Both the position numbers and the translations under genes were made by a program. The notes below the pieces were generated by a model, which was given only the letters and a program-made list of their open reading frames with translations, was not told the origin of the DNA and did not search any database. Positions 10,993-52,898 of a DNA stretch of 64,000 nucleotides are shown in pieces. This stretch comes from Methyloversatilis sp. (GTDB lineage Bacteria > Pseudomonadota > Gammaproteobacteria > Burkholderiales > Rhodocyclaceae), in the NCBI RefSeq assembly GCF_051861465.1, contig NZ_JBHYCQ010000007.1, positions 140,321 through 204,320 of the forward strand, given 5' to 3'. How positions within the stretch are numbered: position 1 is the first letter of the stretch; each line of letters opens with the position of its first letter.

Positions 10993-11982
10993 ATGAAAGC
11001 GACCACCGTCCTTGCGAGCCTGCTCGCGTGCAGCACCTTCAATGCCTTCGCCGTCACGCTGCCGCCTGAACCGGTGGCACGCGACGACCTGTTTGAACTG
11101 ACCGGCCTCACGCTCAGCATTTCGGCGCCTGGCATTCTGGCGAACGACAGCGGCACCGGCGTGATCGTCAGCAGCTTCTTCGATCCGGGGTCGGGCACGC
11201 TGAACAACGTGGTCACCAACGGCGCCTTCCTGTACACGCCCGAGCGGGGCTTTGCCGGCACGACGACGTTCAGCTACGCCATCCTCGACGAGTACAACCG
11301 CGCATCGAGCGCCACGGTCACGATCGATGCCAGCACGACGCTGCCCCAGGCACGCGACGACTATTACACCCTGAGCGACCTGACCCTCGACGTGTCGGCG
11401 CCGGGTCTGCTGGCCAATGACCGCGGCGGCATCGGCGAGGTCATCGTGTCCAGCTACTTCGACCCGACCTCGGGCACGCTGAACAACGTGGTGACCAACG
11501 GCAGCTTCAGATACACCCCTGAGTACGGCTTCGCCGGTGTAGCGAGCTTCACTTACAGCAGCGTGGACGAGCTCGGCCGCAACGCCAGCGCCACCGTGTT
11601 CATCGATACCGCCGCGTCGATTCCGGTGGCGTTCGACGACACCTTCACGGTGCTCAGCGGCGGCACGCTCGACATCCTTGCGCCCGGCCTGCTGGCAAAC
11701 GATCGCGGCGGCATCGGCGACGTCATGGTGTCGAGTTTCTTCGATCCGAGCAGCGGTACGCTGGACAGCGTCATCACCAATGGCAGCTTCCGCTACCTCG
11801 CCGACCCGGGCTTTACCGGTCTGGCGACCTTCCAGTACTTCTCGATCGACGAACTCGGCCGCTCGAGCTCGGCGCGGGTCAATATCAATGTGGTGGCAGT
11901 CCCCGAACCGGGCACCTGGGCCATGATGCTGGCCGGACTGGCTGCTGTCGGATACGCCGGTCGGCGCCGCGCGGCGACCTGA
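10993..11982 (+). CDS. PEP-CTERM protein with three tandem Ig/cadherin-like repeats
   Basis: Three ~96-aa repeats (A.DD.....L...APGLLAND...GTL..V.TNG.F.Y.P..GF.G...F.Y...DE..R...A.V.I); VPEPGTWAMMLAGL tail. Confidence 0.92.
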   Translation: MKATTVLASLLACSTFNAFAVTLPPEPVARDDLFELTGLTLSISAPGILANDSGTGVIVSSFFDPGSGTLNNVVTNGAFLYTPERGFAGTTTFSYAILDEYNRASSATVTIDASTTLPQARDDYYTLSDLTLDVSAPGLLANDRGGIGEVIVSSYFDPTSGTLNNVVTNGSFRYTPEYGFAGVASFTYSSVDELGRNASATVFIDTAASIPVAFDDTFTVLSGGTLDILAPGLLANDRGGIGDVMVSSFFDPSSGTLDSVITNGSFRYLADPGFTGLATFQYFSIDELGRSSSARVNINVVAVPEPGTWAMMLAGLAAVGYAGRRRAAT

Positions 11983-13837: not shown

Positions 13838-15067
13838 ATGAAAACTCGAACACACCTCAAACTGGGCATGCTGGCCGTGGCCATGCTGGCCGTCAGCGGC
13901 AGCGCCCGTGCGGCAACATCGATCGACATCAGCGTCAACGGCGTCTACAGCCTCGTCAACGCGATCAACTTTCAGCCGGGGCAGGAATTGATTTCGGTCT
14001 CCATCGCCGAAGAAAACGCCTTTGCCCGGTATCTGTCGTCATCGCTGACGATGAAAGTCCTGTCGCTCGGTGTGCGCGGCGAGCTGGCCGCGGCGCCGCC
14101 CAATATCGAACGTGTCGCACTGTTTGCTGAAATCAGCGCAACCGCTCCCCCGGCCCCGCTGGTCTACAGCGCCCAGGCCGGCACCGTGGTGCTGCAATCC
14201 GATCTGGGGGCCACCGGCGGCGCCGAAATATTCACCCAGACGAAGACGCAACCGTATCTGTCGAGTATCCGGATGGACTTTTCAGAAGATGCCAGCCGTA
14301 CCATCGTGTTCACGGACTCGTCCGAAGCCACGCTGTTGCCAAAGTATGGCTACGGACCGCTCAGTCCGATCGCCGTGTCGCAGATCCGGGGCAGCCTGAC
14401 CGGCACGATGGCGCTGAAGAGCGAATACAGCGTCAATTACCGGGTCGACAGCGCATTCGACCGGTTTCTGGGCTGGCTCGACAACGTCAATGCCACCGAC
14501 TTCAGCATATACAACGCGGTGAAGCGCGCGATCCTCCAGCACCAGCAGGAGAAGTGGGAGCACGCAACGCCTACCGAACGCAAACTGTTCTGGAGAAGCC
14601 GCAATGGCGGGACGGGTATCCGGGGCGAGGTGATATTCGAGGGCATTTCGGTCCATACGGCGTCGCCCGGCGTTCTGGTCTATACCGCGACGCTGCCCGA
14701 CGCCCCGACCATGGACGTGCCGCTTGCATTCACGCAGAACAATGTCGGTGCCGTGCTGGACGTGGCGTTCGACGGGCAGACGCTGGCCAGCTTTCGCGGC
14801 GATGACTACCTGACCGACGAAATCAACCTGCTCAACATCGACATTTCCAGCTTTGCCGGCAGGACCGGCGAGCTGACGTTCACGATCAACACCAGCGGCC
14901 CCGACAGCGCGGAAATCTTCGTGGCCGAGCGCCTCGGCGGTCTCAAGTTCGCGGCCACCTCGCTCACGCCGGTGCCCGAACCCGGCACCTGGGCGATGAT
15001 GCTGGCGGGTCTGGCAGTCTTGGCCGGCTGCGCGGGTCGCCGGCGCCGGACAGAAACGCATCACTGA
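13838..15067 (+). CDS. PEP-CTERM protein with an unassigned 350-aa body
   Basis: Signal peptide ending in ARA; VPEPGTWAMMLAGLAVLAGCAGRRRR tail. Confidence 0.9.
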   Translation: MKTRTHLKLGMLAVAMLAVSGSARAATSIDISVNGVYSLVNAINFQPGQELISVSIAEENAFARYLSSSLTMKVLSLGVRGELAAAPPNIERVALFAEISATAPPAPLVYSAQAGTVVLQSDLGATGGAEIFTQTKTQPYLSSIRMDFSEDASRTIVFTDSSEATLLPKYGYGPLSPIAVSQIRGSLTGTMALKSEYSVNYRVDSAFDRFLGWLDNVNATDFSIYNAVKRAILQHQQEKWEHATPTERKLFWRSRNGGTGIRGEVIFEGISVHTASPGVLVYTATLPDAPTMDVPLAFTQNNVGAVLDVAFDGQTLASFRGDDYLTDEINLLNIDISSFAGRTGELTFTINTSGPDSAEIFVAERLGGLKFAATSLTPVPEPGTWAMMLAGLAVLAGCAGRRRRTETHH

Positions 15068-15093: not shown

Positions 15094-15175
15094 GTGGGAG
15101 CGGCGGCCTCGCCGCGATCAGTGCCGCGATGATCGCATTGCAACGTGCGCATCGCGGCGAGGCCGCCGCTCCCAC
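15094..15175. repeat. REP doublet (REPIN), GTGG-GCGGCG class
   Basis: Two inverted copies of GTGG-GA-GCGGCG-GCCT-CGCCGC-GAT; the spacer is shared with the 29.1 kb and 52.8 kb copies. Confidence 0.9.
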
Positions 15176-18517: not shown

Positions 18518-19120
18518 ATGAATCGCCTCTACCAATATTTCTTCCGCGGCCTGATCACCTTCCTGCCGGTGGCGCTCACCGTTTACGTGCTGGTGCTGTT
18601 CGTCACCTGGACCGAGCGGCTCGCGATGTCGATCATCCGGCCGATCATCGGCGACTTCTACCTGCCGGGACTGGGCATCGCCATCGGCGCGCTCATGATT
18701 CTGGCCCTCGGCGCGCTGGTGTCTCAGCGTTTCACCGGGCGCCTGCTGTCCTGGGTGGAATTGCCGTTCACCAATCTGCCGGTGGTGAAGAGCATCTATT
18801 CCTCGCTGAAGAACTTCGCCGACTACTTCGCTCCGCATCCGGAATCGGCGCAACAGGTGGTGCTGCTGCGGATGCCCGGCAACGAACTGGGCATCGCCGG
18901 TCTGGTGACCCGGCAGTCGATGGCCGGTCTGCCTGCCGGCCTGGGCGAACTGGAAGATCAGGTCGCGGTTTATCTGCCCATGGGCTACATGATCGGCGGC
19001 TACACCGTGTTCGTGCCGCGCGCCTGGGTGACGCAGGTGGACATGTCGGTCGAAGAGGCGATGCGCATGGCACTGATCGCCTACATGTCGTCGAACCGGG
19101 CAAAACCGGACGGACGATGA
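18518..19120 (+). CDS. DUF502-family membrane protein
   Basis: FFRGLITFLPVALT, PVVKSIYSS, VYLPMGYMIGG. Confidence 0.88.
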   Translation: MNRLYQYFFRGLITFLPVALTVYVLVLFVTWTERLAMSIIRPIIGDFYLPGLGIAIGALMILALGALVSQRFTGRLLSWVELPFTNLPVVKSIYSSLKNFADYFAPHPESAQQVVLLRMPGNELGIAGLVTRQSMAGLPAGLGELEDQVAVYLPMGYMIGGYTVFVPRAWVTQVDMSVEEAMRMALIAYMSSNRAKPDGR

Positions 19121-19269
19121 CCGGAATGGCGCGCACCGGCATCGTCTGTTCTGCCGGACTGCGCATGCGCCCGGCGCGGCGCGCGCCGTCAGACGTCGCC
19201 GACACGGGGCGGCGCACCGGCACGGATCGCAGTACCCTTTACGCACAACGACTCACGGGGAGAACTGCC

Positions 19270-28997: not shown

Positions 28998-29275
28998 CTG
29001 AGGGGTGCCCGTTCTGGCTGAGGGGTGCTGGCATTGGCTGTGGGAGCGGCGATCCACTGCTGGCCCTGCATGGCCAGCCGGCTCTGCGGGCGGCGAGCAG
29101 TGCTCGCCGAAACCCCCGCTCCGCCCTCGCCGCGATACGCACTCTGCACAACGACGGTCGCGGCACTGATCGCGGCGGGGCCGCCGCTCCCACAGGGCGC
29201 TTCTTCCACGGGGCGCCTGTCCCACACGGGCGCTGCTCCCACCGGGACCGCGCACAGGGGCCGCGCTCCCCTACG
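28998..29275. repeat. REP doublet (29040-29193) with a 71-bp insert, flanked by ladders of truncated REP heads
   Basis: GTGG-GA-GCGGCG [71 bp] GCCCT-CGCCGC-GAT, the shared spacer, then an inverted REP; 20-bp units on the left and 13-18-bp GTGG/GTAG stubs on the right. Confidence 0.85.
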
Positions 29276-31112: not shown

Positions 31113-31137
31113 AGTTGGAGTGGGGAGCCAGCTTGAG

Positions 31138-31238
31138 CTGAGGGGTGCTGGCTTTGGCTGTGGGATGCTGGCTCTGGCTGTGGGATGCTGGCTCTGGCTG
31201 TGGGAGGGGCGACTCCCCACAGGTGCCGCCCCCACAGC
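31138..31238 (+). repeat. Three tandem 20-bp units leading into a collapsed REP remnant
   Basis: CTGAGGGGTGCTGGCTTTGG, then CTGTGGGATGCTGGCTCTGG x2, then CTGTGGGAGGGGCGACTCCCCACAG. Confidence 0.8.
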
Positions 31239-33087: not shown

Positions 33088-33660
33088 ATGAACAAAGTCC
33101 TGCTGGCGCTCTGCGCTGCCTTCTCGATCGCCCTGCCCGCCCACGCCGTCACGCTCGAAAGCGCCACACTGAACGGCAATCTGCTTGACGCGTCGTTCAG
33201 CACGCCGTCGCTGATCGCACTCGACATTTCGCTGCTGAACAGCGATCCGCTGAGCTTCAGCTTCGTGCTCGACGCCGACGACATCACGGCCGGCGGCGTC
33301 GATGTGAACGCCATCCTGCGCGACGTCAGCGGCTTCGGCATCGGATCCTTCACGCTGACGACCGGTGGCGCACCGATCTCGGTGGTGACCGGTTCGTTGC
33401 TCGCCACCACGGTGAACGGTGATCTGCTGTCCAGCGACTACTTCGCCGGCGCACCGGTGGCCGAGTTCTACTTCGGCAACCCCTTCCTCGAAGACGGCCT
33501 GGTCGACTGGCGCATCGGCTTCTCCGGCCTGTCCGCAGGCGACCGCTTCACCCTCGACCTCGCCACCACCCCCGCCGTGCCGGAGCCGCGCGAATGGATG
33601 CTGATGCTCGCCGGCATCGGTCTGATCGGCGTCAGCGCCGCGCGCAAGCTGGGCCGCTGA
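33088..33660 (+). CDS. PEP-CTERM protein
   Basis: Signal peptide ending AHA; VPEPREWMLMLAGIGLIGVSAARK tail. Confidence 0.9.
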   Translation: MNKVLLALCAAFSIALPAHAVTLESATLNGNLLDASFSTPSLIALDISLLNSDPLSFSFVLDADDITAGGVDVNAILRDVSGFGIGSFTLTTGGAPISVVTGSLLATTVNGDLLSSDYFAGAPVAEFYFGNPFLEDGLVDWRIGFSGLSAGDRFTLDLATTPAVPEPREWMLMLAGIGLIGVSAARKLGR

Positions 33661-33729: not shown

Positions 33730-34049
33730 ATCGCGGACGGGGTCCGCTCCTACGAAAGGCAACCCCGTCGCGCTTTCGTAGGAGCCATCCACGGCCGGCC
33801 TTGCATGGCCGGCCGGCTCTGCGGGCGGCGAGCGATGCTCGCCGAAACCCCCGCGCCGCCCCCGCAGGCGAATCCCGTCTCCGAAACAGCGACGTCGCGT
33901 GATCGACGCACCGATCGCGGAAAGGTCCGCTCCTACGAAGGGCAACCCCGTCCCGGTTTTCGTAGGAGCTTGCCCTGCAGGCGATCCCGGTCTTCGAAAT
34001 ACGACGTCGCGTGATCGACACGCGAATCGCGGACAGGGTCCGCTCCTGC
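33730..34049. repeat. BIME-like array of five GTAG-class REPs upstream of the RAYT
   Basis: Alternating inverted GTAG-GA-GCGGAC-nnn-GTCCGC-GAT (33730-53, 33914-36, 34026-49) and forward GTAG-GA-GCYTGC-CCY-GCAGGC-GAT (33778-, interrupted; 33962-85), with repeated spacers. Confidence 0.9.
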
Positions 34050-34092: not shown

Positions 34093-34536
34093 ATGCTGAA
34101 CTCACCGCATCAAAGCCGCCTTCGGATCGGTCGCCACTCCATCGCGGGGCAGGTCTATCACGTGACGATCGTGACCCGCGACCGCATTGCCTTCTTCGCT
34201 GATCTCCGGAATGCGCGCACAACGGTGCTGACGCTGCGCGCCGCGTCGGACCTCGGCGATGCGGAGACGCTGGCCTATGTGCTGATGCCGGAGCACCTGC
34301 ATTGGTTGATGATGCTCGGACCACACCGACCCTTGCACCGCGTGGTGCATGCGTTCAAATCCGTCAGCGCCCACCGGGTCGGTCAACCTGTCTGGCAGCG
34401 CAGCTTCCACGACCACGCCCTGCGGTCCGACGAAGACTGCGTCGTCGCCGCGCGTTACATCATCGCCAACCCGGTGCGACGCGGTCTGGTCGAGCGAGTG
34501 GGCGACTATCCGCACTGGGACGCTGTCTGGCTTTAG
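34093..34536 (+). mobile_element. rayT: REP-associated tyrosine transposase (RAYT/TnpA-REP, HUH Y1 family)
   Basis: YHVT, MPEHLH (HUH), WQRSFHDH, YIIANPVRRGLV, DYPHW; REPs on both sides. Confidence 0.93.
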
Positions 34537-34552: not shown

Positions 34553-34638
34553 ATCGCGGACAGGGTCCGCTCCTACGAAAAACGTCGACGTTGGCCGATG
34601 CCTTGCCGCTTTTCGTAGGGGCCTGCCCCGCAGGCGAT
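34553..34638. repeat. GTAG REP pair downstream of the RAYT
   Basis: Inverted GCGGAC-type copy at 34553-76; forward GTAG-GG-GCCTGC-CCC-GCAGGC-GAT at 34615-38. Confidence 0.9.
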
Positions 34639-52771: not shown

Positions 52772-52898
52772 GTGGGTGCGAAATTGTGGGAGCTGTTCCT
52801 GTGGGCGCGGCGGCCTCGCCGCGATACGCACTCTGCAATGCGATCCTCGCGGCACTGATCGCGGCGAGGCCGCGGATGCCAAAGGCCGCCACTCCAAC
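52772..52898. repeat. REP doublet (from 52801) preceded by two truncated GTGG heads
   Basis: GTGGGTGCGAAATT | GTGGGAGCTGTTCCT | GTGG-GC-GCGGCG-GCCT-CGCCGC-GAT; the right-hand REP carries a 16-bp interruption. Confidence 0.85.

Follow-up and report, generated by a model that had tools for sequence, protein, structure and literature searches.

The 64,000-nt stretch of Methyloversatilis sp. DNA analysed here (hereafter the window; contig NZ_JBHYCQ010000007.1, positions 140,321 to 204,320) carries repetitive extragenic palindromic (REP) sequences of two classes, some of them paired in inverted orientation as REPINs, together with a gene whose product matches Y1_Tnp (PF01797, E = 3e-7) and whose relatives are named REP-associated tyrosine transposase (RAYT). 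The genes of the window are 88-95% identical to those of Methyloversatilis metagenome-assembled genomes (MAGs), which places the window in this genus. Uninterrupted, or empty, class-1 REPs (GTGGGAGCGGCG-GCC(T/C)-CGCCGCGAT) are found at 15094, 15151 (minus strand), 29169 (minus strand) and 52801, and empty class-2 REPs (GTAGGAGC(C/T)-TGCCC(C/T)-GCAGGCGAT) at 33962 and 34615. At two further places, a 71-nt sequence that we call the module interrupts a REP: at site A, a class-1 REP is split after GTGGGAGCGGCG and, at site B, a class-2 REP is split after GTAGGAGCC, the remainder of the host REP following on the other side of the module (Table 1). We are confident that the module is a real, structured, non-autonomous repeat that resides in REP loops.

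The two copies, A and B, had been picked out in an earlier reading of the window's letters alone (the original prediction), and we recovered them at the same places, identical at 64 of 71 positions and each interrupting a REP of a different class, as read from the flanks. Their similarity extends about 8 nt past the 71 bases (GCCC(T/C)CGC), which corresponds to the remainder of the host REP loop and its 3′ arm. Folding of both copies as single-stranded DNA (ssDNA) gave the predicted pair of hairpins, with energies of -24.9 and -29.5 kcal/mol for A and B (z = -3.7 and -3.3), and none of 200 shuffled sequences was as stable. Hairpin 1 begins 5-7 nt from the left end of the module, and hairpin 2, which is 34 nt long including its basal stem, stops 3 nt from the right end. 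The copies differ at element positions 7, 10, 15, 25, 48, 49 and 69. As predicted, positions 10 and 25 form a single compensatory T-A to C-G swap, and positions 15, 48, 49 and 69 fall in loops or in the 3′ tail; position 7, which had been counted among the unpaired differences, is unpaired in copy A but gives an extra G-C pair extending hairpin 1 in copy B. The directly read junctions also bore out that the module has neither an open reading frame (ORF) nor terminal inverted repeats, and they revealed no target duplication. Nor does it have the make-up of a MITE (miniature inverted-repeat transposable element), since, across at least 72 copies, its ends (ATCCAC... and ...CGCTCC) are non-complementary and its flanks (GCGGCG on the left, GCCC on the right) contain no direct repeat. 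The module copies are all intergenic.

We estimated how often the module occurs from the sequencing run of the window's own organism (X1; runs, such as X1 and X5, were used as assembled contigs) and from loci retrieved as 8-kb genome pieces, which are designated by L-numbers. On the X1 contigs over site A, the summed depth was about 2100 on the module, about 1100 on the partner REP and 16-20 on the flanks. Because unitigs overlap, we read this as tens to about 100 module copies per genome and not as the depth ratio as such; the density in the window, two per 64 kb, agrees with that figure. An exact 19-mer scan over one genome per species returned at least 100 loci, about 45 of which, among the matches listed, came from Methyloversatilis, the others being chance 19-mers. 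BLAST within the loci from strains XJ19-13 and XJ19-49 and from five MAGs then recovered at least 72 copies from these seven Methyloversatilis genomes/MAGs, which disposes of the possibility that the module is confined to two sites. Among the matches listed, 25 copies have class-1 REP halves on both sides and 21 have class-2 halves on both sides; the remaining ones lie inside tandem arrays, precede an insertion sequence (IS), or are flanked by variant or chimeric REPs. No copy outside a REP context was seen among the matches listed for these at least 72 copies. A third type of host REP, GTAGGAGCGGC before and GCCCATTGATCGCGAA after the module, was found in a divergent species (L058, L076, L162). 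Chance or artefact as the origin of the 71-mer is ruled out by the copy number and the z-scores of the folds, and a plasmid-borne element was likewise rejected: no plasmid matched, and the lone hit to a viral contig was a chance 19-mer within other sequence. Over 6.9 kb, a contig attributed to a Sulfurisoma MAG (L048) and one of a Methyloversatilis MAG (L059), both belonging to the same study series, are 100% identical, probably through a binning error or a duplication.

Table 1. Repeats, module copies and transposase genes discussed in the text. Positions are those of the window unless a locus (L-number) is given; a pair such as (1,0) is the occupancy state of a REPIN.
Feature	Position	Strand	Remarks
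Empty class-1 REPIN	15094-15118 (+) and 15151-15175 (-)		Loops GCCT; state (0,0)
Class-1 host REP (site A), 5′ half: head GTGGGA and stem arm GCGGCG	29040-29051	+	Shared with the empty REPs at 15094 and 52801
Module copy A (71 nt)	29052-29122	+	64/71 identical to copy B; ssDNA fold
Copy A, hairpin 1	Stem 29059-29065 / 29072-29078	+	Loop CTGCAT
Copy A, hairpin 2	29086-29119	+	Basal stem GCGGG/CCCGC; apical stem CGGCGAGC/GCTCGCCG; loop AGT; bulge AAACC
Class-1 host REP (site A), remainder: loop remnant GCCCT, 3′ arm CGCCGC, tail GAT	29123-29136	+	
REPIN spacer, site A	29137-29168		REPIN state (1,0)
Empty inverted partner REP, site A	29169-29193	-	GTGGGAGCGGCGGCCCCGCCGCGAT
Class-2 REPIN (site B), left part	33730-33786		Inverted REP 33730-33753 (minus strand, GTAGGAGCGGACCCCGTCCGCGAT), then spacer
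Class-2 host REP (site B), 5′ part	33778-33786	+	GTAGGAGCC
Module copy B (71 nt)	33787-33857	+	Orthologous copy in L085 is 71/71 identical
Copy B, hairpin 1	Stem 33792-33800 / 33807-33815	+	Loop TTGCAT
Copy B, hairpin 2	33821-33854	+	Loop GAT
Class-2 host REP (site B), remainder: GCCCCC, 3′ arm GCAGGC, tail GAAT	33858-33873	+	
Empty class-2 REP	33962-33985	+	GTAGGAGCTTGCCCTGCAGGCGAT
RAYT gene (147 aa, Y1 HUH transposase)	34093-34536	+	Between class-2 REPINs; orthologues in L085, L109 and L110
Empty class-2 REP	34615-34638		
Empty class-1 REP	52801-52825	+	Spacer homologous to the site A spacer
IS4-family IS	L178:77-1496; L047:2600; L055:6241; L071:3731; L079:103 (-); L094:77 (-)		

The way in which the module sits in its hosts is highly regular. 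Its orientation relative to the host REP is constant, and so is its right junction, CGC(T/G)CC followed by GCCC, the word GCCC being present in all three host REP types and at the junctions with the IS. Read on the bottom strand, the module therefore follows GGGC in all three host REP types (GGGT in the delta group of relatives described below), a word that is also part of the host loop. At the left junction, the host stem is followed by N-TCCAC or N-TCCCAC, where N is A, G, C or T. Within a single REP loop, one to four copies may stand head to tail with a period of 72 (71 nt plus G), as in L003, which has four, and L012, L071, L076, L083 and L206, which have two each; the junctions inside these arrays lack the GGGC word. 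The downstream copies in L003, L012 and L071 are not duplicates of their neighbour but come from a distinct subfamily (TTCCACGGCTGG...CTTCGC...AAT), and perfect tandem units were found in three other organisms. The subfamilies follow the class of the host REP, TCCCACGGTCGG being characteristic of class 2 and ATCCACTGC(C/T)GG of class 1. Shortened forms also occur, consisting of hairpin 1 only (L011, L085, L091), of 53 nt (L062, L180, L193) or of 41 nt, the last in REPs on both sides of the RAYT gene in L109/L110; these deletion derivatives have themselves spread. In L011 (3700-4040), two REPINs form a perfect nested palindrome of about 330 bp with a hairpin-1 module alone at its apex, which reads GTGGGAGCGGCG-ATCCACTGCTGGCC-CTGCAG-GGCCAGCAGTGGAT-CGCCGCTCCCAC.

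Comparison of related REPINs revealed that the module is gained and lost as a discrete unit within one lineage, since class-1 REPINs with identical or near-identical 31-nt spacers occur empty (0,0), left-filled (1,0), right-filled (0,1) and doubly filled (2,0). The same spacer is found in L011 (0,0) and L184 (1,0), and likewise in L206 (2,0) and L223 (1,0). Two paralogous composite REPINs of XJ19-49, L014 and L062, have identical spacers and, upstream, one and the same idiosyncratic degenerate copy, but the module is only in the right REP of L014 and only in the left REP of L062. One orthologous REP holds four copies in XJ19-13, one in XJ19-49 and one in a MAG, and, in the orthologous intergenic region of L015 and of L048/L059, the REPs that contain the module are not the same and its orientation is reversed. 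In one further case (L096), the left flank is class 1 and the right flank class 2. The empty form, GTGGGAGCGGCGG directly joined to CCTCGCCGC, was seen at a loose end among the contigs of the window's own organism over site A.

The orthologue of site A (L102, identified by a DUF3014 protein that is 91% identical) has empty class-2 REPINs in place of the filled class-1 REPIN. At the orthologue of site B in L085, the module is 71/71 identical though the flanking genes are about 88% identical, and, in L109, the orthologous site is filled with the 41-nt variant. In several further orthologous pairs, the difference is one of whole REPINs or of minimal GTGGGAGC-GCTCCCAC remnants. In two comparisons (L007:320-345 with L016:2440-2620, and L061:2170-2200 with L011:3700-4040), a full REPIN or nest at one locus corresponds to two back-to-back REP heads, GTGGGAGC(G)GCTCCCAC, at the other; such a head pair could be the footprint of an excision or deletion, or the seed of a REPIN.

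We then examined whether the structure of the module is conserved. Among 69 Methyloversatilis copies (43 distinct sequences), three pairs of hairpin 1 are changed on both sides: pair 9-26 is CG in 33 and UA in 8, pair 10-25 is CG in 20, UA in 19 and AU in 1, and pair 14-21 also changes. This covariation score was reached by none of 500 shuffles. Hence, the view that the module is under structural selection holds for hairpin 1 and, with the copy number, the folds and the REP contexts of the copies recovered, these compensatory changes bear out that it is a genuine non-coding structured element. Hairpin 2 looked invariant in this set, whose search word had fixed its 5′ arm, and we used a metagenome set instead, in which a contig scan with the hairpin-2 core GGCGGCGAGCNNTGCTCGCCGAAA gave 115 loci that are mostly not of the Methyloversatilis type and that include at least five other conserved contexts. 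The basal helix of hairpin 2 covaries over 70 distinct metagenomic contexts (pair 6-35: CG 34, GC 19, AU 11; pair 4-37: GC 40, CG 12), scoring 0.185, as compared with 0.051 for shuffles (0/500) and no more than 0.051 for slid partners. A search by architecture in 0.8 Mb (a perfect apical stem, GAAAC and at least four basal pairs) found 115 hairpins, compared to none in shuffled sequence, and added five apical stems of the form CG-N5-C / G-N5′-CG, so that six are found in all with the same architecture. Of 86 contexts, 60 have a perfect hairpin of 6 bp or more upstream (12.3 expected); 37 different stems are represented, the TGCA core of the loop is shared, and the hairpin ends at a fixed 8-10 nt from the hairpin-2 core.

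The basal covariation, the shared apical architecture and the upstream hairpin at fixed spacing make the two-hairpin unit a conserved, structure-defined entity, of which the Methyloversatilis module is one member. In this wider family, the stem of hairpin 1 covaries freely and its loop is conserved as YTGCAK. Hairpin 2 follows 8-10 nt downstream and consists of a basal stem that covaries, an apical stem of 8 bp, a loop of 2-3 nt and a bulge, AAAC(C), on the 3′ side. The group that we call delta, which is closest to the 71-mer, independently repeats the pattern of a module in a hairpin loop: here, the module lies between CCAAGGGGGCTGCGCTC and ACCCCTTGGGG, the halves of a different palindrome, and L171 and L174 contain this palindrome without interruption. 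Elsewhere in the family, L119 (1006-1110) has a tandem array with a period of 81, and hairpin 2 alone is repeated in L142 (1735-1800) and L211. In the gamma group (L149:10520-10740, L203, L210, L165), the two-hairpin unit lies between two bidirectional intrinsic terminators and its flanks resemble a tRNA 3′ end (TGGTGGAGGCGGCGGGAATC, GCGGGTCCGATTCCCGC), with AT-rich DNA following in L149. ARAGORN called neither a tRNA nor a tmRNA in these loci, despite the T-arm-like flanks, and the gamma unit could be a small-RNA gene or the remnant of an integration site.

The module is accompanied in some genomes by a 1.42-kb IS of the IS4 family, which encodes a 441-residue transposase (Nterm_IS4 and DDE_Tnp_1). 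This raises the question of whether the module is an end, or long terminal repeat, of the IS, with solo copies being remnants of the IS or MITEs. In XJ19-13, XJ19-49 and one metagenome contig, the IS directly follows the module plus GCCC at all seven of the IS ends that were seen, it stands at scaffold ends in both strains and, in L178, it lies between inverted copies of the REP head plus module. Such inverted flanks are, however, expected if an IS lands at the centre of a palindrome, and the IS has 16-bp terminal repeats of its own, which are absent from the window. Moreover, its depth is 0 in X1 and X5, where that of the module is in the hundreds; it is also 0 in X38, where the module reaches only about 3, and X25 has one contig over the right end of the IS. 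Its absence from the window's own organism led us to reject the module as an IS end, a reading to which we give hardly any weight; an outcome that would have refuted the original prediction, a module that is simply a segment of an IS end, is thereby set aside. The IS targets module/REP structures, and the module is no part of it.

The two REP classes belong to different transposase genes. The RAYT of the window is flanked by class-2 REPINs, one of them filled, and a second RAYT (L108:3001-3591, P0146, XJ19-49), which is 61% identical to it, is flanked by class-1 REPs, of which the one directly downstream is filled. Therefore, there are two REPtrons per genome in this genus and at least two REP/RAYT systems, with each REP class tied to its own RAYT. 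Both RAYT loci examined are flanked by REPs, and neither of them by a free hairpin 1 or hairpin 2 within the 8-kb pieces.

For the origin of filled REPs, we propose that, when a REP hairpin is extruded or replicating, its single-stranded loop receives the module by strand transfer, which a resident HUH/Y1 enzyme, the RAYT, might carry out. Once there, the module would be amplified mainly as a passenger of REP/REPIN copying, and tandem arrays would arise by repeated insertion beside a resident copy or by read-through or slippage. The module is a plausible substrate in that, on the opposite strand, its hairpin 2 has the look of a tagged REP, with G(T/G)AG standing before a long, bulged palindrome. 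The bottom-strand word before hairpin 2 is GGAG or GGCG in the window copies and GTAG, GGAG or GTGAG in relatives, with GTAG in L162, L144 and the delta group; both hairpins have GTAG in L162, and hairpin 1 is generally untagged. From these likenesses, the module would be better read as a nested REP-like doublet, inverted inside its host REP in the manner of the mosaics known as bacterial interspersed mosaic elements (BIMEs), than as a sequence unrelated to REPs. The RAYT step is put forward because of such resemblances and of the single-stranded nature of hairpin loops; it is a plausible mechanism and the most economical one, unproven, and we regard it as tentative. For the explanation as a whole, in which non-autonomous two-hairpin modules enter REP loops via the RAYT and are then carried as passengers, we see the chances as evenly balanced.

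Several observations count against this proposal or at least lend it no support. The original prediction looked to empty orthologous sites, and what was found supports it in part: REPs of the same lineage occur both filled and empty, but a clean filled/empty pair at one orthologous REP was not found among the loci compared, whole REPINs being replaced there. Deleting 71 or 72 nt restores none of the empty loops observed, being off by one base, and the filled loops have GCCC(T/C), with one C more than the GCC(T/C) of the class-1 empties. The base at the left junction varies, leaving no conserved target word on that side. IS200/IS605 elements do show an orientation bias with respect to the replication strand, whereas module orientation has none relative to the sign of the local GC skew (20 vs 19), the 8-kb skew being a weak proxy. 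The two hairpins of the module resemble neither each other nor the REPs beside the RAYT genes, no RAYT gene is present in the 115 metagenomic loci carrying family members, and wobble pairs lack strand asymmetry (12 G-T vs 9 A-C). Finally, the occupancy kept at five orthologous sites, the subfamilies that track REP class and the 41-nt variant on both sides of a RAYT gene fit passive co-amplification and gene conversion equally well.

These last points lead to the main competing explanation, in which the module has no mobility of its own: one or a few accidents long ago, for instance the landing of a REP doublet in a REP loop, would have produced long-loop REPs, and their spread would be due to RAYT copying of the host REP or REPIN, gene conversion by homology or short homology, and template switching, with slippage producing the tandems. 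Hitch-hiking with the host REP does account largely for the spread of the module, because of the class-specific subfamilies and of the same deletion variant on both sides of one RAYT. Passive cargo would also be consistent with neighbouring REPs that share variants (41 nt in L109; 53 nt in L062, L180 and L193), with the occupancy of orthologous sites across species, with the perfect tandem copies in some species, with L096, whose chimeric flanks look recombinant, and with junctions that cannot be reduced to a simple insertion. However, the same module with the same junction lies in three host REP types with almost no shared flanking homology, and, in another lineage, in a different palindrome. 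REPINs with identical spacers in all occupancy states, and second-position copies in three arrays that belong to a distinct subfamily, are also difficult to reconcile with it, and the strong conservation across lineages together with the covariation of both hairpins would be unexpected for inert cargo. We therefore consider purely passive cargo a possibility to be taken seriously, if an unlikely one. Alternatively, the host may select the structure, either as an RNA domain (a processing or stability element of 3′ untranslated regions, or the core of a small RNA) or as a DNA site for a conserved protein, the REPs being a mere vehicle in Methyloversatilis. This would explain why loop and bulge sequences are conserved while the stems covary across distant contexts, why copies lie just downstream of genes and why the gamma group has its unit between intrinsic terminators, like a small gene; words of the element were also found in RNA-labelled runs and metatranscriptomes, although these runs are unstranded contigs that may contain DNA. 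The even distribution of wobble pairs between the strands argues otherwise, as do the lack of a terminator-like T run after either hairpin on either strand and the lack of an Rfam match. About 100 copies per genome, arrays, truncations and rapid turnover are, moreover, the behaviour of a repeat and not of a regulated gene, and we find host selection improbable as the main explanation.

The proposal of loop entry through the RAYT can also be set against known repeat systems. REP/REPIN elements were reportedly linked to mobilisation by RAYTs by Nunvar in 2010. That RAYTs mobilise them is the view of later work (Bertels & Rainey 2011, PMC3116915; Di Nocera 2013, PMC3733652). The module resembles REPs and REPINs in being a short, GC-rich, high-copy intergenic palindromic sequence with no ORF, terminal inverted repeat or target duplication, and in its tie to a single-copy gene for a Y1 transposase that lies between repeats of its own. 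Degenerate forms of the GTAG tag, and REP families whose long stems are bulged, have been described (Di Nocera et al., PMC3733652), and the bottom-strand hairpin 2, a bulged palindrome after G(T/G)AG, is similar to these, even though the tag of the window copies is GGAG/GGCG and not GTAG. A REPIN consists of two inverted REPs that form one long hairpin, whereas the module has two separate, unlike hairpins in direct order and, unlike either REPs or REPINs, lies inside the loop of another REP with a fixed orientation and junction, in tens to about 100 copies and not sporadically. Head-to-tail REP dimers are reported to be rare (PMC3733652), and a handful of REPINs inserted into or beside other REPINs are on record, with no dedicated family described (Bertels & Rainey, PMC3116915). 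A RAYT flanked by free hairpin-2 units was not seen at the RAYT loci examined, and the 115 metagenomic loci are without a RAYT.

Enterobacterial BIMEs are mosaics of REPs and fixed extra motifs, some with a site for integration host factor (IHF), in about 100 copies per genome. As in these, which are also mentioned in PMC3116915, the module combines REPs with conserved short motifs in fixed order and orientation at about 100 copies, but the extra motifs of BIMEs lie between REPs, whereas the module is nested within one REP hairpin and may be tandem there. Sub-terminal hairpins at both ends, with neither terminal inverted repeats nor target duplication, bring it close to palindrome-associated transposable elements (PATEs). 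These are non-autonomous derivatives of IS200/IS605 with left and right sub-terminal hairpins, moved in trans by a Y1 HUH enzyme acting on ssDNA; their ends match those of full ISs in the same genome, and IS200/IS605 elements insert 3′ of a fixed word of 4-5 nt. In contrast, no tnpA between a hairpin 1 and a hairpin 2 was seen in the 8-kb genome pieces, and the variable left junction and the lack of a detected strand bias would also set the module apart from IS200/IS605. The BOX elements of Streptococcus pneumoniae, boxA-boxB(n)-boxC, have a middle module in variable tandem number. They are likewise small modular repeats with a variable-copy middle between constant ends, but they are unrelated in sequence, host phylum and end modules and have no REP/RAYT context. 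REP hairpins are also specific insertion targets, in their loops in the case of IS1397 (IS1397/ISKpn1, IS621, ISPpu10; PMC3184786). The IS4-family IS beside the module behaves like these elements, which are kb-sized and carry their own transposase, unlike the module, with its 71 non-coding nucleotides.

These comparisons place the element as a variant of REP/BIME-type mosaic repeats. No description in print was found, by organism, concept or literal sequence, of the wider family or of the element, which the original prediction had put forward as a parasite or cargo layer not recognised as described. Rfam 15 returned nothing at the gathering score for the window, with chance-level hits only (E of about 0.5), and, for 20 family loci, no hit over the members at E <= 0.1, the only matches being three tRNA genes elsewhere in L148. 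The tandem arrays, the membership in a wider family found in other bacteria and other host palindromes, and the REP-like character of hairpin 2 go beyond the account given in that prediction. With its covarying stems, fixed spacing and conserved loop and bulge, and with no Rfam entry or paper found, the family is a candidate for a new structured-repeat or DNA/RNA motif family of environmental Proteobacteria. That the unit represents a new class of minimal mobile element, targeting the single-stranded loops of other palindromic repeats, namely REPs of several classes in Methyloversatilis and a different palindrome in another lineage, is a bolder idea that we think rather unlikely. If it were true, such a unit would be a hyperparasite or cargo layer on REP/RAYT-type systems, widespread in GC-rich Proteobacteria, and an HUH enzyme would use its conserved TGCA loop and AAAC bulge as signals for recognition or cleavage.

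To our knowledge, the copying of REPs and REPINs by RAYTs has never been shown directly. A 71-nt marker in a REP loop, which among otherwise identical REPINs may be absent, in the left REP or in the right REP, and in one to four copies, offers natural substrates and read-outs for REP copying, gene conversion and strand transfer. On the practical side, nested repeats and an IS that targets them break short-read assemblies of Methyloversatilis.

Two further features of the window were noted. Arrays of REP heads only, in units of about 20 nt without a REP stem (CTGTGGGA / TCCCACAG, for instance GGCTGTGGGATGCTGGCT), occupy 28998-29040, 29196-29260 and 31118-31212; they flank the REPIN of site A and recur 2 kb away, and similar runs lie beside the REPINs of other loci. 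Several genes end in the same PEP-CTERM-like sorting motif (VPEP...W..ML.AG.GL; 11899-11942, 14972-15015, 19087-19130 and 33088-33660), and the 190-residue protein encoded directly upstream of site B is one of those with such an end.

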